From sequence record OQ025076.1: a stretch of DNA of 64,000 nt. One strand, 5' to 3'. The notes beneath the pieces are model-generated. The model was not told the origin of the DNA. It did no database searches and saw only the letters and a program-made list of their open reading frames with translations. The translations under genes were made by a program, and so were the position numbers. Below, piece by piece: positions 5,697 to 64,000 of this stretch. How positions within the stretch are numbered: position 1 is the first letter of the stretch; each line of letters begins with the position of its first letter. The DNA is from Escherichia phage vB_EcoP_YF01.

Positions 5697-5700
5697 CAAC

Positions 5701-5729
5701 AAGGGGCTTCGTGCCCCTTTTATTGTTTT
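5701..5729 (+). terminator. Rho-independent terminator
   Basis: GGGGC-TTCGT-GCCCC hairpin followed by TTTTATTGTTTT. Confidence 0.55.
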
Positions 5730-5739
5730 GGAGGAACTT

Positions 5740-6708: not shown

Positions 6709-6709
6709 T

Positions 6710-7741
6710 ATGGCATATGGAATATGGACGCAACCAGTAGGGCCGGGGCCAGCAACCCCCGCTCCCTTGTTTATTGATAGTGGAAGCACTTTCCCTCAGT
6801 TCAAGAATAGCATAAGAGGAAGTTTTAACTTTAATGGAGCTGGGAGATCTTTCCCTATTAGTGGATGGGATGGTAGTGGTCAGATAATTATTGTTCCCAC
6901 TGGTTCTCTGTGCTGGCAATGGGAAGTCCCTCCTAACTTAGTCCCTGATGTTTATTGTGTAAATAACATCTATGTAGAAAATGCCTCATCTTTTAGGGTT
7001 ACCCTGAACCAGAATCCTGGCAGTAACCCCCTGTTTGATTGTGGGTTCAACGTGTATCAAATTTGGCCTAGAGCTGATAGGAATTACGGAATCACTTTCT
7101 CAAATACAGCAGACTATTTTTCCATATCAGATGCTGGGGTTGTTGGTCAATGTATTTGGGCTTGGCAGGGGGTCATAAACAATGCCCTTCAGATACCAAA
7201 TATCGGTGGGTTCAATATGACCAATGCTGTTGTATTTGCTAATTGGTCTGATGGAGGGCTCGGACTGTCTTATACCTCTGATGACAGAGTTATTCGTGTC
7301 TACCAGAACAGACCTTACGTAAACGGCAACACTAATGAGGGTGGTTCAGTGTTTGCTAGAGTTGCAGTATTCTGCAATGGGGCAGGGGTTCCGGAACATA
7401 ATGGAGGTTTGAATATCTATTCTCCGGGTACCACTCAGTGTGTCTTCTCTACTAACAGAACACCTTTCACTGTGGATACTTTTATAGGCTCAGGGGGTGG
7501 TAACACGGGAATGGCATACCCTATGATACCTCTTACTTCTGGAATAGGTGCAATAAAAGGCCAAGGTAGTGGGTGGAGATACCAGCAAATGAGATCTCAC
7601 ACAATGAGTGGTTCTAGCATAGGAACTGGCTATGGAAGGTATCTATTTCAGTGGGATCAAAATTACGATCTAGGAGCTGGCACTGTAGTTAATTTATCAG
7701 TTCCTGTAATAAATGCAGCTAAGGTTTTTGCTGGACTATAA
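6710..7741 (+). CDS. Virion structural protein (Gly-rich, fibre/baseplate-like)
   Basis: Tightly coupled to upstream gene; Gly/Asn-rich beta-type composition. Confidence 0.45.
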   Translation: MAYGIWTQPVGPGPATPAPLFIDSGSTFPQFKNSIRGSFNFNGAGRSFPISGWDGSGQIIIVPTGSLCWQWEVPPNLVPDVYCVNNIYVENASSFRVTLNQNPGSNPLFDCGFNVYQIWPRADRNYGITFSNTADYFSISDAGVVGQCIWAWQGVINNALQIPNIGGFNMTNAVVFANWSDGGLGLSYTSDDRVIRVYQNRPYVNGNTNEGGSVFARVAVFCNGAGVPEHNGGLNIYSPGTTQCVFSTNRTPFTVDTFIGSGGGNTGMAYPMIPLTSGIGAIKGQGSGWRYQQMRSHTMSGSSIGTGYGRYLFQWDQNYDLGAGTVVNLSVPVINAAKVFAGL

Positions 7742-7753
7742 TAAGGAGATATT

Positions 7754-8536
7754 ATGGCAATTAAAATGGGTATTGAAGAACTAGACCCAATGGTTCAACA
7801 GGCTTCAAAGAAGTATGGAATACCAGCTGCTTTGATTCATGCTGTCATCCAAAGGGAATCTAGTGGACGTCCTACAGTGGCTTCCGGAACCGGTCCTGTA
7901 GGTTTAATGCAGATCAGTAAAGGGTTGGCTAAAGATTATGGTTATAAATTGGAAGATAGATTAGACCCAGCAAAGAATATTGACATGGGTGCTCGGTATA
8001 TCAGAGACAACCTAAAAGCTTTTAACGGTGACGTCAAGAAGGCAATGGTTGGTTACTCTGAAGGAATAGGTGGTGCTAAACAAATGTTTGCTGGTAAGAA
8101 AGGGTTTACTCCTCAAGCTCTTGACTCAATGAACAACAAACACTTCCTCCCGTTCTATGGCGATGCAGCTTCTCAGATTGCTAATCCTATTGGTGCTTTG
8201 CAAGCTGTCCAACCAGTTAACCAGTTTAATCCTGATACGCTGGATAGGGAGAAGGCTGCTCAAGCTCCTACTCAAGCTGAAATTGCTGCTTCTAAGACAG
8301 GTGCTTTAGGTGGCAACCCAGTAGAATTTTACTCTGATGAAGTTCAAGAAGGAGAAGACCAGAAGCCTCAGCAGAATTTTGGTAATGCAGTATTAGGAGT
8401 AGCTGCTATGCTTGCTGGTAAACCTCCTACCTCTCAAACAGTTCAGAGAGTGAGCACACCTCATGCAGCAGGTTCTCAGTACAGCCCACAAACACAAGCA
8501 GTGCTTAGACGTTTGGCTAGCATTGGTATTAAGTAA
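7754..8536 (+). CDS. Lytic transglycosylase (SLT domain) virion protein
   Basis: AAGGAG SD; motif IQRESSGRPTVASGTGPVGLMQIS (catalytic E-S plus GLMQ). Confidence 0.7.
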   Translation: MAIKMGIEELDPMVQQASKKYGIPAALIHAVIQRESSGRPTVASGTGPVGLMQISKGLAKDYGYKLEDRLDPAKNIDMGARYIRDNLKAFNGDVKKAMVGYSEGIGGAKQMFAGKKGFTPQALDSMNNKHFLPFYGDAASQIANPIGALQAVQPVNQFNPDTLDREKAAQAPTQAEIAASKTGALGGNPVEFYSDEVQEGEDQKPQQNFGNAVLGVAAMLAGKPPTSQTVQRVSTPHAAGSQYSPQTQAVLRRLASIGIK

Positions 8537-8555
8537 TAATCGTTAAGGAGGACTT

Positions 8556-9608
8556 ATGTCTTTATTTGGAAAATCAGCTTCTAGCAAAACCACAGTGGCT
8601 CCTTCCTCTCAGGTTGATGCCCTGCTGAAGCAGATTGTTGCTAATGCTCAGAATATGCAGAACAACGATCAGGGATTTATTTCCCAACAGCTGGCTGGGT
8701 TTAATGGCAACCAACAAGGTGCTCTGAATAACTTAGCAGCTTCTACAACTCAAAAACAATTGGCTGATATGTACACACCTCGTACACAGCAAGGTTTGGA
8801 CCAACTGAACTCCCTTGCTCAACAGTATCAGAATATTGTCAATGGTGGTGGAGTTACGGCTGAAGGGGTTAACAACTTTAGTAAAGGTTTGAATAACTCA
8901 GCTCTTGCACAAGCTACTAGCAAAGCAGCTTCTAATGTCTCTCTTGGCAATGGCTCTGATTCTGGTTCTCTCCGTAGGGCTGCGGCTCAAGGGGCTGCTT
9001 TGAATGGTGCTAATACAAACTTGTCTCGTACTGTCAGTGGCAAGAATATGGGTGTAAGTGCTCTTCAACAAGATCAGAACTTCCAGAGAGGGTTACTTGG
9101 TGCTCAATCCGGTCTAGCTGGACAGAACCTCAACCTAGGTGCTCAAGGTGTTCAGGCAACTCAACAGGCCATTCAGAATCAACTCATGGCTGGCAATCTG
9201 CAACAGCAACAAGCCCAAGCTCAGGCTGATATTAATTGGCAGAATGCTATCGGCTCTCAGCAGTATGGATGGAATCAGCTTAACAATCAGCTTAATGTAC
9301 TAAATAGTGTAAGTCCGATGGCTGGATACACGATTAAGAATGCTGCTCCGGGGATTAATACTGGACAACAGCTCCTAGGTGCTGGTATCACTGGTTTGGG
9401 TATTGCAGGTCGTATGGGAGCTTTCTCTCCTAACCAACAGACTCAGAATGCTTGGAGTTCCTATAACAACTCAGGTGGGCAATCTGGAATGGCTGGTCCT
9501 ATGATTGGAGGTTCTAATCTTTCTCAACAGAAAGGTCAGTCTAACTGGTTATCCACAACGGGTAATAATATCTTAGGTGGGGTCTTAGGGGCATTCGGAG
9601 CAAACTAA
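8556..9608 (+). CDS. Q/N/G-rich internal virion protein
   Basis: AAGGAGG SD; strongly Gln/Asn/Gly/Ala-biased, low-complexity composition. Confidence 0.5.
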   Translation: MSLFGKSASSKTTVAPSSQVDALLKQIVANAQNMQNNDQGFISQQLAGFNGNQQGALNNLAASTTQKQLADMYTPRTQQGLDQLNSLAQQYQNIVNGGGVTAEGVNNFSKGLNNSALAQATSKAASNVSLGNGSDSGSLRRAAAQGAALNGANTNLSRTVSGKNMGVSALQQDQNFQRGLLGAQSGLAGQNLNLGAQGVQATQQAIQNQLMAGNLQQQQAQAQADINWQNAIGSQQYGWNQLNNQLNVLNSVSPMAGYTIKNAAPGINTGQQLLGAGITGLGIAGRMGAFSPNQQTQNAWSSYNNSGGQSGMAGPMIGGSNLSQQKGQSNWLSTTGNNILGGVLGAFGAN

Positions 9609-9620
9609 AGGAGATTTAAT

Positions 9621-10589
9621 ATGGGACTTTTCGGAGGCGGGGGTAGTAAGACTACTTCTCAAATGATTCGCCCTGAATACATTCAACAGTATATTGACCA
9701 GCTTAATCAACAGATTGGTAATACTAGTTCAGGGGATTATGTTTATCGTGACAATGTAGGGTTTAATAACAACCAGACAGAAGCTCTTAATAACTTGGCA
9801 CAATCTGGCGCCTTAGGGACTCTCTCACAGCAATACATGGATGCAGCAGGTCAGGGGCTAGGTTATCTAGATAATGCCTATAAAGGCTATCAGAGCCTCT
9901 CTGGGCAAGGTGGTATTACTGGAGAACAGATTGGTGCTCTCGCTGGTCAACTGTATGATAATGACGCTGTGCAAGCAGCCATTACAGCTAATAATGAACA
10001 GGTTCAACAGAACTTGGCACGTAATGCTCTTCCTCAGTTAGCTCAACAGTATGCTGGTCAGCAAGGTTCAGGTGCTCGTATGGCTAAGTCTTTTGCCCAA
10101 GGTGATGCTCTGAATCAGATGCAAGGCCAAGCAACAGATATTACCAATAGTGCCTATAACTCGGCTATTAGCCAAGCTGAAAGCATCCTCTCTGGTAATA
10201 GACAGAATCAGGCAGCTGCTCTCTCTGGTCTTTCTAATATTGGTTCTAACCTTTCTAACCTAGGTCAGCAGGGTGCTAATTTGTCTCAACAGCAAATAAT
10301 GAATCAATGGAATGCAGGGTTGCAGCAACAACAGCAACAACAGAATGAATATGATAATGCCTACCAGAATGCTCAGAACGCAGCTAATTGGGGATGGCAA
10401 GATATCAATAACCAACTCGGTGCAGCAGGTGTACTTAACGGCGCTCTCGGACAAACTACAACTACTAAAACATCTGGTGGCAAAGGTGGTTTCCTTGGTG
10501 GAGCTATGAGTGGTGCAGCAGCTGGCTCTTCCTTTGGGCCTTGGGGTGCATTAGCTGGGGGTGTAATCGGTGGGTTGGCTAGTACTTAA
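9621..10589 (+). CDS. Q/N/G-rich internal virion protein (paralogous in composition to 8556-9608)
   Basis: AAGGAG SD; Q/N-rich with poly-Q stretch; similar N-terminus (M.LFGG..SKTT). Confidence 0.5.
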   Translation: MGLFGGGGSKTTSQMIRPEYIQQYIDQLNQQIGNTSSGDYVYRDNVGFNNNQTEALNNLAQSGALGTLSQQYMDAAGQGLGYLDNAYKGYQSLSGQGGITGEQIGALAGQLYDNDAVQAAITANNEQVQQNLARNALPQLAQQYAGQQGSGARMAKSFAQGDALNQMQGQATDITNSAYNSAISQAESILSGNRQNQAAALSGLSNIGSNLSNLGQQGANLSQQQIMNQWNAGLQQQQQQQNEYDNAYQNAQNAANWGWQDINNQLGAAGVLNGALGQTTTTKTSGGKGGFLGGAMSGAAAGSSFGPWGALAGGVIGGLAST

Positions 10590-10602
10590 TTAGGAGATAA
10601 AT

Positions 10603-12252
10603 ATGCAACAGACAACTTACGCTCAGGTCAGAAGTCGTGACCCGAGAAATACTTTCTATGGTGTTAATCCGGGAGCGGCTTCGGCCTCTCCTTATATGGC
10701 TAGACCAACTCAGACAGCAGATATTTCTATGTATCAACGTCCTGCTATACCTGCTGGGCTTTCCTCTCTTGTAGGTCAAACTTCAGTAGATTATCAGAAT
10801 ATGTTGAATCCTGTTCAGAGTAATGGTCTTCCTTCTGATATCCCAAATGATGTACAACCTCAAGCACAACAGGCTGTAACTCTTCCTGAGTTTGAGAATC
10901 AAGAAACCATGCAAGCTGCTGGACTTTCTCCTTCTTCTATTCCTCCAGAATCAGAACCTCTTCCGGTAACACCTCCTACTAAACCGTTAGAAGCTGGTCC
11001 TATGGAGTTTACTCCTTCTCAGGTGGAACAGGCACAAGGTGTGATTAATACTCTTGCCCAAGGACAAGACGCTGGTGATGGAATGACTGCTGCTACTCGT
11101 GCTAAAGATCAGGAACGTGTTAACAACGATATCTTGCAAGTTGCGAAAGCTAAAGACCCTTCGGAAGCTTGGAACAAACTACAGAAAGAACCATTCTACC
11201 AAAACTCCAGTTTCTACACAGGTTTGATGGGTGTAGGTCTTTCCATTATGTCAGGTAAGTCTCCTATTGAAGCTTTCCAGATTGGTCAGGGAATGGCTAA
11301 TCAAGATGAGACTAAGAAGCAACTGGAAGCTAACCGTGATGCTCTGATTGAACAAGGCTTCTCTCAAGACTCGATCGCAGCTGCTATTGCTAACGGAGAC
11401 CCGTCTCTACTGAAGATGAGAGCTGTAGACCCTGCTCAGAAAGAAGCGCTGTATGCTGCTCGTGAAGAACGACAAAATGCTGAATGGGATAGACGTCAAC
11501 AGATTCAAGAGCAAACTATGCGTGAGCGTGCTGATGAAACTCGTCGTGCCGCTGAAGAAAGAGCTAACATGAACTTTGAACGTCAGAAAGAGTTGATTGG
11601 TTATCGTGATAAGGTTAAGGCTGAACGTGCTGAACAAGCTGCTCAGAGTTTTAACTTTAACCCGAAAGAAGTTCGTCTTGCTCAGAATACAGCTGAAGGT
11701 ACGGTTGCTAAGCAGTGGGCAGAGAAAGGTGGCCTGTTTAACCAGTCTAACAAAGACTTGGATTTGGCTGACAAAGCAGTTAAAGATAAAGACTACCAGA
11801 CAGCTCGTTCTGCTTACATGCAGGCTATCATGAACTCCGCAAGGGCTGAAATCGGTGCTACTCGTTCTCTTACCGAAGAAGACTTGGGGCACTTTGCAGA
11901 AGACCCATCAATCTTCGTTCGTGTTGGCAACAAGTTTGCACTGAAATCTGGATGGCGTCCTACTGATTCTGCTCTTGCTTATGCTCGTAAGCAAGCTAAC
12001 GTTGGTCACACCTCTGCAATGAAAGGTGTTGCTGATGCTAAGAGAGCTACGATTGAAGCTTACATCGGTTCTGGTATGGATAAGAAGAGAGCTACTGCAT
12101 TGGTTAACCGTGCAATCCCTTCTGGTGGTTTCTATGACCCTCTAGGTGTTTTCTCTGAACAAGCAGAAGAAGCAGTTGGTGGTGCAGCAACCAATCCTAA
12201 GCTTAATGGTGCTTTATCAGCTGTCGAAGACACTAGCTGGTTTACTCAATAA
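10603..12252 (+). CDS. Virion/internal protein
   Basis: TAGGAG SD; Pro/Gln-rich N-terminus, coiled-coil middle; 549 aa. Confidence 0.5.
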   Translation: MQQTTYAQVRSRDPRNTFYGVNPGAASASPYMARPTQTADISMYQRPAIPAGLSSLVGQTSVDYQNMLNPVQSNGLPSDIPNDVQPQAQQAVTLPEFENQETMQAAGLSPSSIPPESEPLPVTPPTKPLEAGPMEFTPSQVEQAQGVINTLAQGQDAGDGMTAATRAKDQERVNNDILQVAKAKDPSEAWNKLQKEPFYQNSSFYTGLMGVGLSIMSGKSPIEAFQIGQGMANQDETKKQLEANRDALIEQGFSQDSIAAAIANGDPSLLKMRAVDPAQKEALYAAREERQNAEWDRRQQIQEQTMRERADETRRAAEERANMNFERQKELIGYRDKVKAERAEQAAQSFNFNPKEVRLAQNTAEGTVAKQWAEKGGLFNQSNKDLDLADKAVKDKDYQTARSAYMQAIMNSARAEIGATRSLTEEDLGHFAEDPSIFVRVGNKFALKSGWRPTDSALAYARKQANVGHTSAMKGVADAKRATIEAYIGSGMDKKRATALVNRAIPSGGFYDPLGVFSEQAEEAVGGAATNPKLNGALSAVEDTSWFTQ

Positions 12253-12272
12253 GACCTAAGTCCTGCCTTCTA

Positions 12273-12281
12273 TAATGTATA
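12273..12281 (+). promoter_or_regulatory. Putative phage-specific promoter element TAATGTATA
   Basis: Exact 9-mer TAATGTATA 39 nt upstream of the SD-supported ATG at 12320; same 9-mer recurs upstream of minus-strand genes at 22451 and 29925. Confidence 0.5.
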
Positions 12282-12319
12282 TAGGGGGTAGGACATTTTT
12301 ATTTATAAAAGGAGACGTT

Positions 12320-15300
12320 ATGGCTAACATTAAACCGTGGGAAGAAGCTTCCAAAGCTCCTGCGTATCTGAATGCCTCTCCGGAGCAACAAGCTCAAATG
12401 AGAGAACAATATAAGGCAGCAGGTGGCTCTATTCCTGAGGAACAACCAGTAGCACAACCACAACAAGAAGAACGTGGTGCTATAGGTGAGTTTGCTCAAG
12501 GTGTGTCAAATGCTCTTCAATCTGGTGGTGCAAATATTGCAGCTAGTGCTGCTAAAGGTATTGGTGGTTTAGTTGAGATTGGTGAGAATCTAGCTGGAGC
12601 ACAAACTAGTTATGGTAAGCGTATCCAAGAGAACTCTCAGAACCTTCTGAAAGAACGTATGGATAAGATTGAGGATGGGATTGGTAAAACTGTCGGTCAG
12701 TATGCTGGTGTTGCTGGTGATATCGGTTTGACAGTTGCTAACCCATTGGCTGCTGCTGCTATCATCGCAGGTCGTGAGACAGGTCGTGCATATGCAGACC
12801 AAACCCCTGAAGAGGGAGAAGATAAGTCTATTCTAGATGCAGCCTTAGTTGGTGGTGCTAACTATGCGGCTCAGAGAATCCTTCCGGGTGCTGTCGGTAC
12901 AGCTGAATCCACACTTGGACGTATTGGTCAGAACGTTGCTAGTAACGCAGTGGCTGGTGCTAAAGGTGGTGCTCTTGTGGGTGCTGCTGAAGCTCAGAAT
13001 AAGCACGGAGATGACACAACCTTTGCTAATGTATTAGAAGGTGCTATCGAAGAAGGTGCTATGGGTGCTGCATTCGGTGGTGCAGTTGGTGGGGTTCATG
13101 GTTTGATTAGCCGTCCGGATTCTGCTGTCTTCAAGAATACTCCAGAGTATGCGAAGACTGATATTGCTGCTGATGATGAACTAATTCGTAGTGCTAAGAA
13201 CATTGATGAACTGAAAGAAGCTTACTCTAAAGCTGAAACTGCTAACGCTGCTTCTGCTCTGAATCTTCTGGATGAGAATGGATTCCGTATTACGGATGCT
13301 GTTGCTGTGGACTCTCCTGCTGCTCAGCGTATTCTTAATACTGACCAAGCTCGTGCTGAGAAAGCTGCTTCTGTTCAGAAAGAACATTCCAACATTCCGG
13401 GCCTTAATCCTTTAGCTTCTCCTGCTAAGACTCGTGGTAAAGCGTTTGCTGATAATGAGCACAACCAGAAGCAGGCTGTTGCTATGAAGGATGCAATGGC
13501 TGACTACACCAAAGACAACACGAAAGCTCTTACAGATGTTCTAGATAACCTAGACCGTGAATTAACTTCTCTCCGAGCTTCTGGTGATTTTACTGGTAGT
13601 CCGATCGATATTAAGAATCGTACACAAGCTGACCGTGATTTCATTGATGCTTACAAGACTTTCTACAATGAAGCAAATCGATTCAAAGCTCGCGAAGGTG
13701 AAGATTTTAATAACTTTGTAGAGAAAGCTACTGAACTACAGAAGATGGCTGATAATGTTTCTCCAGAGATGAAGAAAGCTATCGGTGGGTTGAAGAAACT
13801 GAAAGGTATGCCTGAAGGTTTTAATCCTATCCAAGATGCTTACACTCTGAACAATACGGCTAAGTTTATGAGCAACCAAGATCGTGGTTGGACTTCCCTG
13901 ACTGATGATGGATTCCGTGAAGCTTCTTCACCTAGTCTGGTAATGAACACTCTCGGTGCTGCTAAGTATGCTCTGAATCGCTTCTCTTCTCAGCGTGCTC
14001 GCTCTCAACGTGTTAAGCAACAAGAATCTAACAGTGAAGCTATCCGCTCTCTGGCTCGTGGTGATTTGGAAGTTGCTCGTGCTAAATCTACTGCTGATGA
14101 AGCTCGTGCTAAGATGGAAGAACCAGTTGTTGATGACATTAAATTTAAGACGCAAAATGACGTGGAAACCGAACCGGTTCGGGAGACTTCTTCTAGTACT
14201 GTGACGGAAGAAAATCTTCCTTCTTCTGCTCCTCAAGAAACCCCTCTTACAGCTCGTGATTTAGTTGCGCAAAGACGTGCTATCCGTCAGGCTGAACAGC
14301 GTCGCGCTGAAGAAGAGGCAGCAGCTGCTCAAGAAGCTCCGGTCGAACAAGCTCCACAGGCTGAACCTCTCCCTGCTCGTAACCCTCTAGAGGAGCGTCG
14401 TGCAATGGAACAGCAACGTGCTCAAGAAGAGGCCGTACAGGCTCCAGAACCAACCGTAGAGGAACCAACAGTCAAAGCTGAGCCATTACCTGCTCGTGCT
14501 CCTAAAGCTCCTAAGGAAGCTGTACAGGACGTTAAACCGGCAAGTGGTGTAGAACGTTTAGCTGCTATGTCTAGTGCTGCTCGTCAGGCTACTAAAGATC
14601 GTGCAGAACGTTTTGCTCGTTCTCTGTACTCCAAGGCTACTAAAGCTAAAGCTACTGCTGAAAACTTCTTGGCTTACAAGGGTGATCCTAAAGAGTTGAT
14701 GCGTCGTATTCGTCAGGAAGATAATGCTATCAACACTGAACGTCATGAAGAGATGGCTCGTAATCAGCTAGCTTCTCAGCAAGGTATTGCTACTGCTAAG
14801 AACAACACTGTACGAACTAATTTTGCTGAATGGGTTAAGGAACGTGGTCTGCCAGAAGACGTTGCTACTAAGGCATTACGTGCTGAAGAGAAAGGTTTAG
14901 GTGGGAACGTAACTAACTTGGATAGTCTGAAACGTCGTGCTGAAAGGTTGTATCAGAAGCAGCGTGAGGATGAGTTTGATAGACTGTACCAAGAAGCTCT
15001 GGAAGAGAATAAAGCTTTCGATAAGAAGGATGCTCCTAAACTGGTTGACCAGAAGAAAGAGCTTCAGTCTGAGATTGATACTTTGATTGATTCAGAACCT
15101 TTACGTCCTGCTCAGAAAGATGCTATGCGTAAGCTGATGAATGATTTTGTAGATGGGAAGTTTAAATCTTCAGAGAAGGCTGGTAGAGAAGAGGCTTTGG
15201 AAGTTGGTCAGATGAAGGATGTTTGGGATGGGTTTATTAACACCTATAACAGAGAAGTGAATGCCTTCAATAAAGCTAACAAGAACTCTCAGTACGAAGC

Positions 15301-47674: not shown

Positions 47675-48871
47675 TTATTTTCCTAAAAATAATCCGCTCA
47701 TAACACCATCCCACTCAGAGGACGGAATCACTGAATACTCCGAACTTTGGTCCAGAGTCCCACTACTAAATCGCTGAACAATGTTGTAGATGTTGAACAG
47801 GTCTTTAGTCTCAGCACGAATGCCGTAGATTAGCCTGTTAGTTGTTCTCTCATTTTTAGACACGCGACGAGTAAAGTTGATCAGAAGGTTGTCACATTTC
47901 AGGATTTCTGATTCACTCTCTACTAAATCAGGGTGCATCACCGGCAAGAACATTGAGTTATTGACTCGTAATTCTGCTGTTTCATCATTCTCATAATGAA
48001 TCCACTTAAAGTCTTCATCACGGAAGTGACCACACCCATCTCTGTATGACTGTTGACGCCAAGGCACTTGAAATGCTTCAGCATATTTATCAGCCATACC
48101 AACCGTAAACAACGACGCTGGGAAGATACAAGCATCCCAATCGTTACCAACCAGAGTTGCTTTCGTTTCACCCAAGAGGTTAGTGTAAGTGCTAACCATT
48201 CGGGAATAAACGTAAGCCTGAAGGATTGTCCAGCCTTCAACCAACCATTTATGAAGGAAGGTTTCAACTTGACTCTCTTCATCTTCACAATAGAAGGTTC
48301 GATCTAACATCAAATAGAACAGACAACGATCAGCAGGAACATTCTCAGTTGCTACCCCCATAAAACCTTTCTCGTGCCAGCGTAAACAGGAGGGACGATC
48401 TTTGTCCACAAATGCTTCCATAGCTTCCAGTACAGCACGAGGTGTAGTTCGATATTCAGGGTTTTTGTCGTTCCAACGTTCGATATTATTTTTAAGCTCG
48501 CCTTCGTAGTCAATAGCACCCCAACCTAAAGCTGCGGATACAGGCTTTTCGTCACGCCAACGTCTAAAACCTAACATCTTCATGTGAGTTCCGGAGTTCC
48601 AGATATGCTTGATTTTACACATATCCATCTCTCGGCTTAACAGGAACTCTTCCCCATCAGCACTACGAACGTTAGCTTCTTCATGCCACACTCGAACGTG
48701 CATATTCCACCCATGAGTTGCCTCATACATGTTAGGGTCGAAGTAGTCATCATATTCGTCATCGTCTTCATCAACGCCACCGTTATAGTTGCGAAGCTGA
48801 AGGAACCCATAACAAGGAGGGTTGACCGTTAAAACATTACCTTCAGTATCTTCTAATGTTACTGGAAACAT
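47675..48871 (-). CDS. Hypothetical protein (amidoligase-cluster member)
   Basis: ORF in track, 398 aa; no recognised motif. Confidence 0.45.
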   Translation of the reverse strand: MFPVTLEDTEGNVLTVNPPCYGFLQLRNYNGGVDEDDDEYDDYFDPNMYEATHGWNMHVRVWHEEANVRSADGEEFLLSREMDMCKIKHIWNSGTHMKMLGFRRWRDEKPVSAALGWGAIDYEGELKNNIERWNDKNPEYRTTPRAVLEAMEAFVDKDRPSCLRWHEKGFMGVATENVPADRCLFYLMLDRTFYCEDEESQVETFLHKWLVEGWTILQAYVYSRMVSTYTNLLGETKATLVGNDWDACIFPASLFTVGMADKYAEAFQVPWRQQSYRDGCGHFRDEDFKWIHYENDETAELRVNNSMFLPVMHPDLVESESEILKCDNLLINFTRRVSKNERTTNRLIYGIRAETKDLFNIYNIVQRFSSGTLDQSSEYSVIPSSEWDGVMSGLFLGK

Positions 48872-50779: not shown

Positions 50780-51028
50780 CTACGGAGTTAAGATCATTTC
50801 AACTTTACTAAACTTCTCACCAACAACCATATCACCAGCGATTGTCCGAAGTTCCCCAGTTCCAAGATTAATAACTACGGCAGGCTTGCAACTTCTGCTA
50901 ATATCTGCTAGCATATAAATCTTGCCTAGTTGACACTCCTTCAAAGTGAATACATCTGATGTTTTCAAGTTGGAGACGCATATAGCCAAGTCTTCATCTT
51001 GCTTTACTTTGATGTGAATGGTACCCAT
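50780..51028 (-). CDS. Small early protein, paralog family member 1
   Basis: ~80 aa; shares hydrophobic/Gly pattern (L..L..G..F ... Y ... VNL.TG) with six other ORFs. Confidence 0.45.
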   Translation of the reverse strand: MGTIHIKVKQDEDLAICVSNLKTSDVFTLKECQLGKIYMLADISRSCKPAVVINLGTGELRTIAGDMVVGEKFSKVEMILTP

Positions 51029-51033
51029 CTAAA

Positions 51034-51279
51034 CTACTCCTGAACTACTGACATACGAATCATTTCTACCTGATCATCAAGGCTTTTAACAGATAGCACA
51101 CCTGTGGAAAGGTTTACCACAGGAACCCAACCACTGGCGATACGGATATTACCAGAAGCATTTTCAACCCTCATATAATACTGAGGGGAGGCACTTCCGA
51201 TCTGAACCACAAAAGGGTTTCCAGGAATGATTGTTTCCAATCGTACCGTATTATCCTTTTTCTTTGGGATGATTTTCAT
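51034..51279 (-). CDS. Small early protein, paralog family member 2
   Basis: As above. Confidence 0.45.
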   Translation of the reverse strand: MKIIPKKKDNTVRLETIIPGNPFVVQIGSASPQYYMRVENASGNIRIASGWVPVVNLSTGVLSVKSLDDQVEMIRMSVVQE

Positions 51280-51527
51280 TATGTGTTATCCACCAAAAGT
51301 TCTGCCGATACAGGGACAACTCGGCACCAGATAGAAGGGGCTGTTACGTTACCATCAGATAGACGAAGAGTGATTGCTCGATCGGAGTTAACGGTTACGT
51401 TAGGACTTTCAGACACAGACCCTTTGACATAGAGAGTAGAACTCTCAGGGAATTTAAATACTGCTCCACTAGGAAGAGAGTTGATATCAACCGTGGACAC
51501 TTCTTCTTTCTTGTGAGTAATCTTCAT
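51279..51527 (-). CDS. Small early protein, paralog family member 3
   Basis: As above. Confidence 0.45.
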   Translation of the reverse strand: MKITHKKEEVSTVDINSLPSGAVFKFPESSTLYVKGSVSESPNVTVNSDRAITLRLSDGNVTAPSIWCRVVPVSAELLVDNT

Positions 51528-51535
51528 TTCAAATC

Positions 51536-51847
51536 CTATTTAAGTTTGAGGCTAATGTTAAGGTGCATACATGCCCTGTTCTGTACAGCAGCATAACTTC
51601 TACCGAGCATGTCAGCCATTCTCTGAATAGACATAAACCCAGCATTACGGATAAGGAACTGGTCTTCTTCTTTAGACCACTTAACTCGGAGTGTGGCTCT
51701 AGAGATACCGAACTTAGTGCAAGCTGTATTAACTGCATTCTCCGTTACATTCATAATCTGAGCAACTTCTTGAACAGAGTACTCTTTGATTAATCTCCGA
51801 AGGTTTTCAACCTGCATCGGAGTCCATATAGTTCTTCGTGCTTTCAT
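51536..51847 (-). CDS. Putative HTH DNA-binding regulator (two Myb/SANT-like or sigma region-4-like repeats)
   Basis: Two repeats W..(E)...L.R.......(E)VA/MA..(L/M)..(T/S)..AV..R; GGAGG SD. Confidence 0.45.
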   Translation of the reverse strand: MKARRTIWTPMQVENLRRLIKEYSVQEVAQIMNVTENAVNTACTKFGISRATLRVKWSKEEDQFLIRNAGFMSIQRMADMLGRSYAAVQNRACMHLNISLKLK

Positions 51848-51894
51848 ACATCCTCCAATTAAATATTTATGTAAGACTTGCTTAGATAAAGATT

Positions 51895-51926
51895 CAATAA
51901 AATAGGGGGAGGGGACGAATCCTCCC
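51895..51926 (-). terminator. Terminator-like hairpin (minus strand)
   Basis: GGGAGG-8nt-CCTCCC stem-loop followed by U-rich tract. Confidence 0.4.
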
Positions 51927-52142
51927 TTATCCTATTAATTAAGTTTGCATGTAAGATCTAACAATCGGTTGCCTTTGTAGGAATAAGCGTTATGCTCATC
52001 CAGCACTAAACTCCCGCCCCCTTAGTGGGCTGGGTTATTAAAGGGTAACGCCCTTATGGGCTAGTTACGTGAATGTTAGTTTGATAGGAGATCTGAAGTC
52101 CTATCTCAAAGGACTCTCGTAAGAATCCTTCACGATAAGCTC

Positions 52143-52316
52143 TTAACAAGACTGGTCACACGGCTGATCACCACATGTTTTACAGATCACTGGTGAGTAA
52201 CTACAGGTAGGATATACTGACACACCATCAAACGTTTCACACCCACAGTCAGGGCATGTACCATTAGATTCCATATCATCGTCATCATATACTTCACCGC
52301 CACCATAACAGCTCAT
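52143..52316 (-). CDS. Small Cys-rich (zinc-binding) protein
   Basis: 57-aa ORF MSCYGGGEVYDDDDMESNGTCPDCGCETFDG...CKTCGDQPCDQSC; below track cutoff. Confidence 0.35.
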   Translation of the reverse strand: MSCYGGGEVYDDDDMESNGTCPDCGCETFDGVSVYPTCSYSPVICKTCGDQPCDQSC

Positions 52317-52325
52317 ATGAACTCC

Positions 52326-52547
52326 TTAATAAACTAAACCTATAGCCTTTGCGTCAGGCTGAGGGACTACTTTTGCATTAGGGCGATAGCCATCCACTGA
52401 GCCATTCCAAAGATTGACACAGGTAATATACCCATCGTTCAAGTAGTCTGTTTTAATCCAGAAGTATTTATCATGACCAAAAATACTTCCGTTTGGCAGC
52501 GTGGACAGTTCAACAGTTTGAAGGGATTGTTTAGAACTTAATTGCAT
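52326..52547 (-). CDS. Small early protein, paralog family member 4
   Basis: Pattern LSTLPNGSIFGHDKYFWIKTDYL...CVNLWNG. Confidence 0.45.
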   Translation of the reverse strand: MQLSSKQSLQTVELSTLPNGSIFGHDKYFWIKTDYLNDGYITCVNLWNGSVDGYRPNAKVVPQPDAKAIGLVY

Positions 52548-52554
52548 AATAACC

Positions 52555-52803
52555 TCAATTATCGTAGCATGTATCCCAATACATGTAGTTAACGTACGTT
52601 CTCGGTTTGATTCCGTACATAATAAAGTGAGTCTTCTTAATTCTTTCCTTCAGTGTGTAATAAAGACCATCACTAAAGTTACCAATCTTTACTTGAAAAC
52701 GTAAAGAGCGAGCATCCATTCGAAGCATAGAGATTAGCTGTACTCTACTACCTCCAGCCATCTCTTCAAGAAGCTTCTTTGTATTCCAATAATGAGCTGC
52801 CAT
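52555..52803 (-). CDS. Hypothetical protein
   Basis: Track ORF 52555-52860; start trimmed to internal ATG abutting the upstream stop. Confidence 0.35.
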   Translation of the reverse strand: MAAHYWNTKKLLEEMAGGSRVQLISMLRMDARSLRFQVKIGNFSDGLYYTLKERIKKTHFIMYGIKPRTYVNYMYWDTCYDN

Positions 52804-52804
52804 A

Positions 52805-53104
52805 TTACCACTCCTTACCGGTTGTAATCGTAGAACCACCACACCATAAGGCTGTATCAATCACAACATTATCCGGTGTAGATTTCTCTTCGTTGATAGA
52901 AGGGTTAGCATTAGAGCAGGTTGCTCCGTTCCAGCGCATATCAATTTCACCAGAAGGAACCTTCTTACCTTTATGCCAGCGAGAAACACAAACACCTTCC
53001 ACTGCTACTGCACACCATCCATCAGGACGGCTCTGTACGCAGCCTGTAAGGGCTATGCAGACAAGGAAGATACAGATTAAGGATATTACACCACCCCAAC
53101 TCAT
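52805..53104 (-). CDS. Lipoprotein (candidate superinfection-exclusion/receptor-blocking protein)
   Basis: Signal peptide with lipobox LTGC (MSWGGVISLICIFLVCIALTGC); AGGAGG SD; Cys-rich mature domain. Confidence 0.5.
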   Translation of the reverse strand: MSWGGVISLICIFLVCIALTGCVQSRPDGWCAVAVEGVCVSRWHKGKKVPSGEIDMRWNGATCSNANPSINEEKSTPDNVVIDTALWCGGSTITTGKEW

Positions 53105-53250
53105 AATTACCTCCTATTAGATTTGGTGGACTATCTGGAATCGAACCAGAAGCTCACTAAGAAAGCAATTCCCACTGTTATAAAAGCACTCGCCTCAACA
53201 GGGATACACTAACTCTGGTGCCGCACCCATACTAGCCCTTGTTTAAAAAT

Positions 53251-53326
53251 TGGCCGGGACGGAAGGATTTGAACCCTCGTAAAGCGAGTTAGAAGCTCGC
53301 TGCCTTATCCACTAGACTACGCCCCG
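53251..53326 (-). tRNA. tRNA-Arg (anticodon UCU)
   Basis: 76 nt folded by hand: 7-bp acceptor stem (one G-U), D arm GUCU/AGGC, anticodon stem GCGAG/CUCGC with loop CUUCUAA (anticodon UCU), T arm GAGGG-UUCAAAU-CCUUC, discriminator G, encoded CCA. Confidence 0.85.
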
Positions 53327-53766
53327 ATAGATTTAAAACCGTTATACTTACCAGCGCAAGATCTGTTGCAAAAAGAATTTGCATACTTAACATTACGCTT
53401 TTCTTTTTCAGAAACTTTCCCACAGTAGGCACAAGTAATCATTACCATAGTCCTTCCTGTTGTTGATTCTGCTGTTGATTTCTTTCTGTGATCTTCTACA
53501 GACAATATCTGAAGGTTTGACAGTTCATCATTCGTTCTGTCCCTATCTACATGATCTACTTCCTCATCCTCGGTGAGATATCTTCCAATATGGCAAGACA
53601 TTAAATATCTAGAATAAGAAACTGTCGACCTGTCTTTATCAGAGTTGTAAAGATCTATAACCCTCCTCCCCTCTCTGTTTTGACGAAGATATCCCCACCT
53701 CCAGTCGTTACAGTAGGGGTAATCTAATTGCATTTTCAAAAAATCACCTCCTACTGCTCTATCCAT
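53317..53766 (-). CDS. HNH endonuclease
   Basis: Motif EVDHVDRDRTNDELSNLQILSVEDH; C-terminal CAYCG...CNRSC zinc ribbon; 3' end overlaps the tRNA 5' end by ~10 nt. Confidence 0.65.
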   Translation of the reverse strand: MDRAVGGDFLKMQLDYPYCNDWRWGYLRQNREGRRVIDLYNSDKDRSTVSYSRYLMSCHIGRYLTEDEEVDHVDRDRTNDELSNLQILSVEDHRKKSTAESTTGRTMVMITCAYCGKVSEKEKRNVKYANSFCNRSCAGKYNGFKSIGA

Positions 53767-53788
53767 TGAGCTAAGAGCGCAGAGTTAT

Positions 53789-53953
53789 TTAGATCATATC
53801 TCGCTTAGTGATATGACCACATGTTTTACATCGAAGTATATAACGAGTACCTGTGTCTTCTATTTGACCGATCTCATTGTATATGTGTAAACGAATTTCT
53901 TTTATTGTCTCCCAATCATGGAGATGGAAGAAACGTTTAAACCACTTTATCAT
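53789..53953 (-). CDS. Small zinc-ribbon protein
   Basis: Track ORF 53789-54013 trimmed to internal ATG; C-terminal RCKTCGH. Confidence 0.3.
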   Translation of the reverse strand: MIKWFKRFFHLHDWETIKEIRLHIYNEIGQIEDTGTRYILRCKTCGHITKRDMI

Positions 53954-53960
53954 ATTAACC

Positions 53961-54212
53961 TCAAGCACAAGCAGGGAGAGTGATGATTTTATAACGACCT
54001 TCAAACTCTCCAAACAAACCTAAGAATGTAGGACTGTAAGTACCAGTGCAAACAAACTCATCAAACAGTTCGTTATAGCTAGGCTTAATCTTCCAAGCCC
54101 ATACATAACCCATCTTGTCAATTGCAATGTAACGAGTGTTCAGAGGAACAGTCATCATCACATCATCAACTTCGATCACTTTAGTTATTGGTGCAGCTTG
54201 GAAGTTTTTCAT
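53961..54212 (-). CDS. Hypothetical protein
   Basis: ATGA coupling with upstream small ORF. Confidence 0.4.
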   Translation of the reverse strand: MKNFQAAPITKVIEVDDVMMTVPLNTRYIAIDKMGYVWAWKIKPSYNELFDEFVCTGTYSPTFLGLFGEFEGRYKIITLPACA

Positions 54213-54385
54213 ACTTTACCTTTGATAAAAATGTCATTACCACAGACACAGCATGAACGAACAACAGTAGCGCCACGCTGAACGATACGAACCTCTTCCT
54301 TAACCAGATTAATACGAGCACCGCAGCAAGGAGAGTTGACATAAGAGTAACCAGCTTGTGTATTCTTGATTGTTTGCTTAGACAT
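54209..54385 (-). CDS. Small zinc-ribbon protein (58 aa)
   Basis: ORF MSKQTIKNTQAGYSYVNSPCCGARINL...RSCCVCGND; start overlaps upstream stop (AATGTCTAA); below track cutoff. Confidence 0.35.
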   Translation of the reverse strand: MSKQTIKNTQAGYSYVNSPCCGARINLVKEEVRIVQRGATVVRSCCVCGNDIFIKGKV

Positions 54386-54629
54386 TTGATTCGAGATCTC
54401 TTAGTTGTTCAGCCAATTGTTCGCATTCATTAACGCAGAACTCTTCTGTTCTTGGTATCCCGTTAGGGTTGAACCGTGTCTTATCACCTGCATGGGCACA
54501 ATCAAATCCGATTGTATTTAAACCACCCATTTCTTCAAGGGTGTCTTGCCATGTGACACCACCATGAACACCAACATCACAAACAACCTTTTCCTCTCCG
54601 TTATATCCGGTGAAGTTTTTATGTTTCAA
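54378..54629 (-). CDS. Hypothetical Cys/His-rich protein, N-terminus possibly disrupted by a frameshift
   Basis: Track ORF begins at TTG; its frame is open a further 24 codons upstream (IGPSCCDYAHEQSHLCGYV...) without a start codon, while a 30-codon ATG ORF (54644-54733) runs in another frame. Confidence 0.4.
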   Translation of the reverse strand: MKHKNFTGYNGEEKVVCDVGVHGGVTWQDTLEEMGGLNTIGFDCAHAGDKTRFNPNGIPRTEEFCVNECEQLAEQLRDLESNV

Positions 54630-54779
54630 ACTATCTGGTAACTCTACATACCCACATAAGTGGGATTGTTCATGTGCATAATCACAGCACGAAGGCCCGA
54701 TTTAGTTTCCCAACTTTTAACTATGCGTCTCATATAAGCACCTCTTGTTAGTTTAAGTAAGAGCTGTCCCTTAATTAAA

Positions 54780-54808
54780 ACAACAAAGGCCACCCAAAGG
54801 CAGCCTTT
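54780..54808 (-). terminator. Terminator-like hairpin (minus strand)
   Basis: GGCUGCC-UUUG-GGUGGCC hairpin followed by U-rich tract. Confidence 0.4.
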
Positions 54809-55314
54809 TTATTTATTAACTGTTATATGTCCAACTACCTTGCTTGTTACGGATGGCTGACATTGCATGAACCCAGAAGCCTTCCAGTTTCAGAGCACCG
54901 TTAGCTACTGCATCCATACGTTCAGGGCGGTTCATACGTTTGGTTGATACTTTCATACCTATCTCTCTTTGTTAGTGGAGGCATTATTGCCAGTTGATAT
55001 AAGGGATAGCTCCAGTCAGGAGGCTAATTCTGACCGCGTACTCATTGCCGACCTTCTCTGCCTAAGAGTTCAGGTTCTAGAGCTATCTCTTATTCCAACT
55101 GGTGAAGACTCCCTACCCCTAGGAAGTCTCCTGAATCCCAAACTAATATGTACCCCTACATATCAGAAAGTCTTTCGAAAATTAACAGGTTTTAGTCTAA
55201 CACCGGATGTTCGAGCAAGCTCTCCCTAGCGGTGTGGCATATGCCTGAATTAATAAGTTAATGAGGAACACCCTCACATAGCCCTCTGATAAACACAAGG
55301 GCTATAAGTCGGTG

Positions 55315-55569
55315 TTACTTTTCTTTGTTTGTAATTACTGCATCATGGATAACTGAAACAGGTAAGTTTGAATCTAGCTTCATTACTTGATTGGTACTTA
55401 AACTAAGCACTACACAACCATTCCGAAGATCAGTCTCTGACACATGTGGTGTATATAACTGAACGATCATGTAATAATCAATACATGTTGCCTTAACTTG
55501 GAAAACATCACCGAGTTTCAAATCACCCACACGCAATTCTTTAGCTTTAAGGTTCAGATCAATCTTCAT
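55315..55569 (-). CDS. Small early protein, paralog family member 5
   Basis: Pattern LRVGDLKLGDVFQV...YYMIV. Confidence 0.45.
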   Translation of the reverse strand: MKIDLNLKAKELRVGDLKLGDVFQVKATCIDYYMIVQLYTPHVSETDLRNGCVVLSLSTNQVMKLDSNLPVSVIHDAVITNKEK

Positions 55570-55795
55570 CTTTAGCCTCTATATTAGTTATGTGGAGATC
55601 ACTGCGTACTTGGCAGACTTCATCCCGCTTAAAAGGCATGAGCTTTCCAGTTACCACATCAACGCAGTTCACATAGTTATCTGCGTACAGGGTGTCGGTT
55701 CTAATGTAAAGAGAGTCTTTACGCTCAAATAGAACGCCCGGCTTCATGTTGTTTAAGCGAAGCATTGTACGATCGGATTTAATATTAACTTTCAC
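55559..55795 (-). CDS. Small early protein, paralog family member 6
   Basis: Pattern MLRLNNMKPGVLFERKD.LYIRTD...CVDVVTG. Confidence 0.45.
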   Translation of the reverse strand: MKVNIKSDRTMLRLNNMKPGVLFERKDSLYIRTDTLYADNYVNCVDVVTGKLMPFKRDEVCQVRSDLHITNIEAKDED

Positions 55796-55797
55796 TG

Positions 55798-56058
55798 TTA
55801 ATCCACCTTATTGGTAAGCCGAGCATTGCTGACCTTCTTGATGACTGTATTACCTTCATCCGTTGCAATAACGCCACAGGAAAGATTGATATAACTTCTC
55901 TTGTCTGTTGTCCCAAACTTCTGACTAGATAACATATAGTAATTCTCCCCATCCAGAGGGAACTGGAATACATCACCTGATTCTAAATCCCCAAGAGTTA
56001 AAACCTTTGGGGCGTTGTTCATATCAATTATCACTGTTAATCTCCTGCTGCTTAGCAA
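55798..56058 (-). CDS. Small early protein, paralog family member 7
   Basis: Pattern LTLGDLESGDVFQF...YYML...INLSCG. Confidence 0.45.
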   Translation of the reverse strand: MLSSRRLTVIIDMNNAPKVLTLGDLESGDVFQFPLDGENYYMLSSQKFGTTDKRSYINLSCGVIATDEGNTVIKKVSNARLTNKVD

Positions 56059-56320
56059 TAGCTACTCGCAAGTCTTCATTAGCACGAGCAAGGCGTAACA
56101 CTTCGTGGTTGAGGCTCTGAAGACGCTTGTTTCTGTCCTCAACTTGCATAATAAGATCGTTGAGTGTTACTTTAACTTTCTCATTATACATCTCATCCAC
56201 TCGAACTAGGGATTTATACATTCTCTCCCAGCTTGCTGCTTTGTTTCTTAGAACAATGAATCCTAGAACGCTGATAGTTAAACAGCTTACAAAAAGGAAT
56301 TTATATACTTCTAAAGTCAT
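56024..56320 (-). CDS. Membrane-anchored coiled-coil protein
   Basis: N-terminal TM FLFVSCLTISVLGFIVL then charged helical region. Confidence 0.45.
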   Translation of the reverse strand: MTLEVYKFLFVSCLTISVLGFIVLRNKAASWERMYKSLVRVDEMYNEKVKVTLNDLIMQVEDRNKRLQSLNHEVLRLARANEDLRVAIAKQQEINSDN

Positions 56321-63480: not shown

Positions 63481-63908
63481 CACGGGGAGAATACAACCGC
63501 AGGACAGACCACGGGGAAACATAGCAAGATAGTGCGGTAATAATATACCACTTAAATAATTAGTTAACTATTAATAGCATTACTCAAACATCAAAGACGT
63601 TCGCTACGCTCACAAAGGCACGCTGAAAAAGAAAAGAATAAAAGAAATAATAAACATCAAACATAATCTTTCCACTTAATTAATACATACATCATTATTG
63701 CACTCATAATCATCACTATTGAAACTATTTACACTCAAACTATGGGGAGCTGAACGGTAACAATACGGTATTATTAGACCTGTTATGATTGTGCCTTATC
63801 AGAGTATAGCCTTTCTCTCACTCTCTAAAGGGGTACTAAATAAACGGGTAGCTAATGAATAGGATGGTATACACGGGGAAAGAATAACGGGGAGTAGGCA
63901 CGGGGAAA
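63481..63908. repeat. Dispersed ACGGGGA(R)A direct repeats in terminal ORF-free region
   Basis: CACGGGGAGA 63481, ACGGGGAAAC 63511, ACACGGGGAA 63871, AACGGGGAG 63886, CACGGGGAAA 63899. Confidence 0.5.
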
Positions 63909-64000
63909 CGCTGGAACGTGGGAGGAGGTGTAAAGGCATTGCCAATAACCCTTTTTTAAATGAGGACTCCCCCTTTTTAGGAAACGCGCGGCGAGCGGCT

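Follow-up and report, generated by a model that had tools for sequence, protein, structure and literature searches.

A phage family of small early-region paralogues with a predicted SH3-like barrel fold and recurrent tandem amplification

INTRODUCTION

Large DNA viruses, for example, carry accessory multigene families as arrays of tandem paralogues, and virulent phages have small early genes that are paralogous. Here, we analyzed a 64,000-nucleotide (nt) stretch of DNA from Escherichia phage vB_EcoP_YF01 (OQ025076.1; hereafter, the window), a Kuravirus of the phiEco32 group in the Gordonclarkvirinae, and focused on seven minus-strand open reading frames (ORFs) of 73–86 amino acids (aa), designated A to G. 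A first-pass annotation of the window had described them as two triplets and a singleton, and all seven are indeed present at the coordinates that it gave, with A-B-C at 50780–51527, D at 52326–52547 and E-F-G at 55315–56058 (Table 1).

The PHROG families 12612, 7431, 7832, 6570, 9955 and 16423, as well as 8365, 10911 and 34455, are labelled 'unknown function' and match each other. The PHROGs collection keeps these families apart and unannotated, and it records no unifying superfamily, fold or copy-number behaviour for them. The Kuravirus comparative papers do not mention the paralogy. Another relative is gp21 of phage N4 (74 aa), which is encoded by a single-copy gene in the first 30 kb of the N4 genome, between lipoprotein and endonuclease genes. 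Neither the superfamily nor its fold or repeated amplification appears to have been described so far.

RESULTS

The seven genes are paralogues of one family

The pairwise identity among the seven proteins is 11–27%. A BLASTP comparison with the 387 window ORFs of at least 40 aa linked proteins E and G (E = 1e-7), D and F (9e-5) and C and D (0.013), while A, the most divergent of the seven paralogues, had no significant match to the other six in this search. Leave-one-out hidden Markov models (HMMs), each built from six members, ranked the omitted protein first among all other window ORFs in seven cases out of seven, with E-values of 1.3e-9 for protein E, 3.8e-7 for G, 8.4e-7 for F, 4.6e-6 for B, 2.3e-5 for C, 2.5e-4 for D and 0.011 for A; the best unrelated ORF in these searches had an E-value of at least 0.12. 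Each protein matches its own PHROG family over the full length (E = 1e-27 to 4e-49; six families, with proteins E and G both in 9955), and these families, among 38,880 in the collection, match each other reciprocally, end to end and collinearly, with E-values down to 3e-8. Moreover, an hhalign comparison of the profile of A orthologues with the family profile lacking A gave a probability of 94.7% (P = 6e-8) over 59 collinear columns. On this profile evidence, the seven genes are true, anciently diverged paralogues of one protein family, and the earlier proposal that they arose by duplication and divergence is upheld by the significant profile, PHROG and hhalign matches. An HMM scan of the window ORFs found no eighth member of at least 40 aa.

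We also considered that the likeness might be an artefact of composition or chance, or that some of the ORFs might not be genes. Such a view could draw on the low identities, on the lack of a significant single-sequence BLAST match for A and on the low-confidence model of A, but the leave-one-out HMMs, the PHROG cross-matches and the hhalign comparison are all significant and collinear. Furthermore, purifying selection on the orthologues (see below), a Shine-Dalgarno-like sequence before the start codon and annotation as a (hypothetical) coding sequence (CDS) in ~100 related genomes are found for each of the seven, and an artefact is therefore highly improbable.

The motifs that had been listed as common to the proteins are real, but they are looser than stated. 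The N-terminal MK(I/V) occurs in only four of the seven; in the L..L..G..F segment, the phenylalanine is invariant, whereas the glycine is present in six and replaced by serine in A. The V.L..G-type C-terminal strand is found in all seven members.

The start codon of B and the stop codon of C share 1 nt, and E and F overlap by 11 nt. The longest ORF of G starts with a TTG at 56058 and encodes 86 aa. The true start is probably the GTG at 56034, giving a protein of 78 aa rather than 86, because an AGGAG sits 7 nt before this codon, the N-terminus read from it is in the family register, and a 25-nt repeat is common to this site and the start of F. The variable slot for the first gene of the array, which holds G, the subfamily x6 (see below) or none depending on the genome, is marked by the G-start copy of the repeat.

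Predicted fold, conserved residues and charge

An AlphaFold2 model of protein E was built with a 45-sequence family alignment. The model (predicted local distance difference test score, pLDDT, 82.4; predicted template modelling score, pTM, 0.69) has five beta-strands, and the predicted fold is that of an SH3-like small beta-barrel. The structural neighbours at the top of the comparison are the uL2 C-domain, the Spt5 KOW domain, a DNA-bound PWWP domain and domain I of EF-P. A Foldseek search of the whole PDB with the model returned the same barrel classes, none at E <= 1e-3, and a profile search of the PDB sequences gave only noise (E at least 0.12). Given that no PDB entry matches at E <= 1e-3, no structure of a family member has been solved. 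Separately computed models of Kuravirus paralogues in BFVD, from phages 172-1, ECBP2, Paul, ES17, SU7, NJ01 and LAMP, match the model of E with template modelling (TM) scores of 0.6–0.85, and relatives of the B, D and other types are among these matches. The BFVD models of small, uncharacterised proteins from N4 (gp21), N4-like phages, 7-11, PaP3 and others match it in the same TM range.

An alignment of 174 diverse members revealed conserved columns (E numbering) at M1, K2, I3, L14, L17, G20 (98%), V22 and F23 (100%), and further at Y33, V55, L57, G60 (93%), V71 and A77. In the predicted strands, these positions correspond to hydrophobic core residues and to glycines at turns. Across the 174 members, there is no conserved D, E, H or C residue indicative of an active or metal site, and no conserved basic or exposed aromatic position. 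The beta2–beta3 loop is an indel-rich segment of the alignment. Inside the orthologue groups, additional residues of the surface and tail are invariant, such as the tail GDMVV.EK of A.

The isoelectric points (pI) of the seven proteins range from 4.9 to 9.2 (4.9–6.7 in six of them) and their net charges from -2.5 to +1.5; over 129 representatives, the median pI is 5.4. The seven proteins lack hydrophobic segments. The anti-restriction DNA mimics Ocr and ArdA are helical and acidic. The ideas that the phage proteins are DNA mimics of this type, or basic DNA binders, were both rejected on the basis of the near-neutral charge, and the beta-barrel model also differs from such mimics.

The family is widespread in phages

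None of the seven proteins matches a Pfam family at E <= 1, nor do distant relatives; PADLOC gave no match at E <= 1, and NCBIfam nothing meaningful. A word-indexed search returned close Kuravirus orthologues only. When 1.84 billion representatives were searched exhaustively with an HMM, 855 clusters were detected at E <= 1e-3, and nearly all of the best 150 are stand-alone proteins of 68–87 aa that align end to end. Among the genuine variants are two-domain fusions (P0131, P0137, P0140, P0141 and P0152). Some long proteins with multiple repeats were rejected as spurious, namely P0123, in which an NHL-type repeat is matched via 'VVNLHTG', and P0127 and P0171, which have FN3-like repeats. P0129, a 478-aa protein of a Tenacibaculum metagenome-assembled genome, begins with a SprT-like metalloprotease domain (Pfam E = 6e-9) and continues with five tandem family domains, so that the domain is also present in repeated form in a protein of cellular origin.

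N4 gp21 is a member at the sequence level, with E = 4e-9 against a Kuravirus-only profile and 1.4e-17 against a broad profile. The domain is also amplified in unrelated contigs. A 190-kb phage contig (L010; Logan SRR22868748) has six or seven copies at 5049–11890, four of them adjacent (one being the fusion P0141) and two or three scattered within 7 kb, interspersed with genes for Pol III alpha, SSB, Dam, DNA ligase and RNA ligase. The largest array seen is on a 61-kb contig with 32% GC (L015; ENA ERZ16268292 scaffold_2832), where 15–17 members, including a two-domain fusion, fill ~6 kb (8838–14819) and are interrupted by one unrelated gene of 305 aa; this contig also carries a phage hallmark protein, phrog_850 (E = 3e-110). 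Two members sit side by side on L014, a distant phiEco32-like contig. Single-sequence tblastn was too insensitive for such comparisons; N4 gp21 matched Enquatrovirus only and a member from the largest array had no match among isolated phages. As judged from the profile matches, the family is widespread in phages and has been repeatedly amplified.

Copy number varies by whole genes

The early regions of ten genomes were scanned with the family HMM. The numbers of copies are seven in the window, nine in phiEco32, ten in YW01, ten in Bas90, eight in Paul, nine in SU10 and seven in Bas89, with five in each of two Suseptimavirus phages and a single one, member B, in Bas92, a Kuravirus with a reduced genome of 67.7 kb. 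Clustering divides the copies of the ten genomes into at least 18 subfamilies (A–G and x1–x11). The subfamilies fill the same three or four slots, and the genomes show cassette-like differences: the slots are occupied by A-B-C, A-B-C-x2 or A-B-x2, by D or D-D, and by x1-x9-E-F-G, x1-E-F, E-F-x6 or x1-E. G is absent from phiEco32, and x6 takes the place of G in Bas90 and Paul.

Positional counterparts exist across genera, and members resembling A, C, F and G are found at matching positions in the sister genus Suseptimavirus; the pairs are A and x8 (5e-7), C and x2 (5.8e-10), C and x7 (1.2e-5), F and x4 (4e-7), and G and x3 (1e-16). No DNA-level similarity was found between copies except at the 25-nt F/G start junction, and a recent tandem duplication was rejected for this reason. 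The positional counterparts across genera, together with the lack of DNA similarity, indicate that the duplications predate the genus split. The diversity of the family arises mainly by gain, loss and replacement of whole genes, resulting in 1–10 copies per genome.

Purifying selection

Selection was measured gene-wide, as the pooled Nei-Gojobori ratio of nonsynonymous to synonymous substitutions (dN/dS) of each orthologue group against the genome panel. The values are 0.195 for A, 0.215 for B, 0.211 for C, 0.185 for D, 0.203 for E, 0.038 for F and 0.054 for G (median 0.19), and the median of 29 neighbouring early genes is 0.18 (Mann-Whitney test against the family, p = 0.51). The seven genes are constrained coding sequences under ordinary gene-wide purifying selection. 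The view that they are under diversifying selection is not supported: gene-wide dN/dS (0.04–0.21) is the same as in the neighbours, the duplications are old, members at matching positions are present in Suseptimavirus, and turnover proceeds by whole genes. As seen here, tandem small early paralogues need not mean diversifying selection.

Probable early class

The early genes of SU10 are CDS 69–125 (PMC4281155). In phiEco32, four sigma70 promoters located where the cluster begins drive transcription of the early genes (PMC8948821). The seven genes are syntenic with phi32_95–97, 104, 114 and 115 and with genes among SU10 CDS 96–114, inside the SU10 early class, and strong near-consensus sigma70-like sites are located upstream on the minus strand (63337, 61112, 60906 and 60415). 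Their earlier placement among the early genes agrees with these observations, and we infer from synteny that they are expressed early. Mass spectrometry of SU10 particles or lysate identified 34 proteins, none of them encoded by CDS 96–98, 102 or 111–114 (PMC4281155); although this method easily misses small proteins, the result speaks against virion components. Terminator-like hairpins number 17 between 49000 and 64000 of the window, compared with 10.2 +/- 2.8 in shuffled sequences; the literature describes long polycistronic early transcription.

A candidate structured RNA element beside E-F-G

The E-F-G array is adjoined by a gene-free element of 358 nt, which is 97–98% identical in SU10, Bas90, YW01 and Paul and 81–83% identical over ~230 nt in Suseptimavirus. 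It is better conserved than the flanking genes, and ~98 Gordonclarkvirinae records carry it. The RNA fold of its minus strand has a z-score of -3.3, and 87 pairs make up the consensus structure, in which 98.6% of cells are paired. Compensatory changes occur at 14 pairs, compared with 5.7 +/- 1.9 in shuffled alignments (0 of 500 reach this number) and 0–2 when the partners are slid, in a sample of only nine sequences from ~3 lineages and with a structure derived from the same alignment. Two of the hairpins have a common UAGGGGUA loop. Rfam gave no match at E <= 1. We regard the element as a candidate for a new structured non-coding RNA within the early transcript of the Gordonclarkvirinae.

The 66-nt tip of one hairpin matches 26 P22-like Salmonella phages with 77–79% identity (E = 5e-6). 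In ST64T (L017, 1501–1566), the match falls, within the leader, between the gene for the c2 repressor and gene 24, which encodes an N-like antiterminator, on the same strand. The invariant core of the segment is UCGGCAAUGAGUACGC.GUCAG. This segment may be a portable cis-acting RNA module, serving in antitermination or processing.

Gene neighbourhood

The 7-kb stretch around the seven genes is matched by 109 phage records at 90–95% identity, nearly all of them from phiEco32-group Escherichia phages. The best coverage by any single record is at most 85%, and the region is therefore mosaic. A helix-turn-helix regulator is encoded directly upstream of C-B-A, and the other neighbours include a phage lipoprotein, a cell-wall hydrolase and a tRNA-Arg(TCT) beside an HNH endonuclease gene. 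In relatives, the HNH gene is absent, of another type or on the opposite strand beside the same tRNA (Paul, Bas92), which is consistent with a mobile homing endonuclease.

The ORF upstream of E-F-G matches no Pfam family and, at 98 aa, is much too short to encode a helicase, and its 'DNA helicase' label is probably a propagated annotation error. Two Cys-rich small ORFs possibly encode zinc-ribbon proteins; they have no Pfam match and are under strong constraint (dN/dS 0.06 and 0.31 for the ORFs at 52143 and 54209, respectively). The status of three short ORFs with dN/dS above 1 as real genes may be doubtful.

Table 1. Coordinates of the seven paralogues and of other features in the window
Feature	Position	Strand	Remarks
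A, 82 aa	50780–51028	minus	phi32_95 equivalent; PHROG 12612 (E = 1e-27), cross-matches phrog_7832 and phrog_8365 at 3e-4
B, 81 aa	51034–51279	minus	phi32_96 equivalent; PHROG 7431
C, 82 aa	51279–51527	minus	phi32_97 equivalent; PHROG 7832
D, 73 aa	52326–52547	minus	singleton, short-loop type; phi32_104 equivalent; PHROG 6570
E, 84 aa	55315–55569	minus	phi32_114 equivalent; PHROG 9955; structure-modelled member
F, 78 aa	55559–55795	minus	GTG start, Shine-Dalgarno GGTGGA; phi32_115 equivalent; PHROG 16423
G, 78 aa from the probable GTG start	55798–56034	minus	PHROG 9955; no phiEco32 counterpart
25-nt start-junction repeat, F-start copy	55779–55803	minus	spans Shine-Dalgarno sequence, GTG and first codons
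25-nt start-junction repeat, G-start copy	56018–56042	minus	84% identical direct repeat; spacing 239 nt, one gene unit
358-nt element	54957–55314	minus	gene-free, separates E from the next ORF; every frame has stop codons
66-nt hairpin tip of the element	55014–55079	minus	cleanly absent in Bas92 and Suseptimavirus
tRNA-Arg(TCT)	53251–53326	minus	
HNH endonuclease ORF, 149 aa	53317–53766	minus	Pfam HNH_3; abuts tRNA-Arg(TCT), 10-nt overlap
98-aa ORF	56024–56320	minus	directly upstream of E-F-G; labelled 'DNA helicase' in many related GenBank records
Cys-rich ORF, 57 aa	52143–52316	minus	paired CxxC-like motifs
Cys-rich ORF, 58 aa	54209–54385	minus	paired CxxC-like motifs
Short ORF	48352–48519	minus	greedy gene call; dN/dS 1.2–1.6 for the three short ORFs, low divergence
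Short ORF	48637–48810	minus	as above
Short ORF	63799–63945	minus	as above

DISCUSSION

Our analyses lead to a best explanation in which the seven genes would encode small (~75–85 aa), cytoplasmic, non-enzymatic proteins with an SH3-like five-stranded barrel, synthesized early from long leftward polycistronic transcripts that are begun by the host sigma70 RNA polymerase. On the common scaffold, the beta2–beta3 loop, the surface and the C-terminal tail would be paralogue-specific, each conserved within its orthologue group, and each paralogue would bind a different host (or phage) macromolecule stoichiometrically, thereby modulating host physiology or immunity. The set would constitute an accessory, genome-specific repertoire, changed by the gain, loss or replacement of whole cassettes. 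We infer a distinct target for each paralogue and binding rather than catalysis, the latter because the conserved positions are only the core and the turn glycines and the loop, surface and tail are specific to each paralogue. A non-enzymatic binding scaffold with paralogue-specific targets, deployed as an early accessory repertoire, is plausible, and we put it forward tentatively.

The same barrel could, however, bind nucleic acids. In this alternative, the proteins would be Sm-, KOW-, Tudor- or PWWP-like barrels that bind phage or host RNA or DNA and modulate transcription, translation, replication or transcript stability. The best structural neighbours of the model contact RNA or DNA, the copies in the 190-kb contig lie among replication genes (Pol III alpha, SSB, ligase), and the candidate structured RNA element directly adjoins the E-F-G array. 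SprT-like domains belong to a family that acts on DNA-protein crosslinks, and the Tenacibaculum protein joins such a domain to five copies. On the other hand, the near-neutral to acidic pI of six of the seven proteins, and of the representatives at the median, is unfavourable to this alternative, as is the lack of conserved basic or exposed aromatic positions and of a match to any Pfam nucleic-acid-binding family even at E <= 1. We consider nucleic-acid binding unlikely.

Several points weigh against the binding scaffold itself. Our search for literature on the function of Kuravirus early proteins, SH3-like phage paralogues and N4 gp21 found none, and the early timing of the genes would follow from synteny and secondary citations. 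An AlphaFold2 model of A from A-type sequences alone (8 sequences) was uninformative (pLDDT 42.9), and the fold of A is purely a sequence-profile assignment. Moreover, most members are dispensable under the conditions of the BASEL collection, in which Bas92 is viable with B alone and shows no extra sensitivity. Bas92 plates with an efficiency of plating (EOP) of ~1 on EcoKI, EcoCFT_I, EcoRI, EcoRV, EcoPI, RexAB, PifA and Old (PMC11990801, supplementary data), and the EOP of Bas90, with ten members, and Bas89, with seven, is also ~1 on this panel (PMC11990801). On Fun/Z, the EOP is ~0.01 for Bas90, 0.05–0.2 for Bas92 and ~1 for Bas89 (PMC11990801), without a simple link to family content. Bas92, which has only B, is as resistant as Bas90 and Bas89, and A and C–G are therefore not needed against the systems tested. 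A role against those particular BASEL systems is unlikely.

These results also bear on the possibility that the proteins are dedicated anti-defence inhibitors or sponges, each directed at one immune system, in which case the content of the array would track the defence repertoire of the hosts. This possibility is a stronger form of the first-pass suggestion of host-takeover or anti-defence effectors. Known anti-defence factors are typically small single-domain proteins, and the cassette-like accessory turnover in the early region, together with the recurrent tandem amplification in unrelated phages, would suit such a role. The Gordonclarkvirinae are also reported to be remarkably resistant to restriction-modification (RM) without known inhibitors (PMC11990801). 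Nevertheless, Bas92 with one copy matches Bas90 with ten on six RM systems, RexAB, PifA and Old, and sensitivity to Fun/Z does not track the copies. Gene-wide positive selection was not seen, and the positional orthologues kept across genera suggest stable targets rather than an arms race. No component catalogued by PADLOC and no Pfam family is matched. A dedicated anti-defence function is, in our judgment, unlikely.

Returning to the binding scaffold, a broader and more doubtful form of it is that the family serves phages in general as an expansion-prone 'binder scaffold', the loop and tail of which would be retooled by duplication into sets of one to over 15 proteins that act as specific inhibitors of host factors or as adaptors for them, with immune proteins possibly among the targets. 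If this is true, the family would be to bacteriophages what multigene families are to large eukaryotic DNA viruses, and the two-domain fusions and the tandem adjacency would hint that neighbouring paralogues form hetero-oligomers. About a tenth of the early-cluster genes in this phage belong to one family that is unnamed in the curated libraries. One functional finding would thus serve to annotate many genes, namely the seven of the window, as many as ten in related phages, that of N4 gp21 and hundreds of metagenomic phage clusters. The BASEL collection provides a natural copy-number series on E. coli K-12, with one copy in Bas92, seven in Bas89 and ten in Bas90.

To conclude, we compare the family with known systems. 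In relation to the SH3-like barrels of uL2, Spt5/NusG KOW, Tudor/PWWP, FeoA and EF-P domain I, the fold is alike in the predicted model, while a sequence relation is undetectable. The glycine motif of KOW, the aromatic cage of Tudor/PWWP and the metal-binding residues of those families are not conserved in the phage proteins. Furthermore, the phage proteins stand alone, whereas the KOW, Tudor, PWWP and uL2-type barrels are domains of cellular machines. Unlike the viral multigene families to which we liken them, the orthologue groups described here are under ordinary purifying selection. As in those families, however, the diverged tandem paralogues are built on one scaffold, vary in copy number between close relatives and reside in an early or accessory region. 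A multi-copy family of small accessory proteins in the early region of a phage is, in this respect, a familiar kind of thing.

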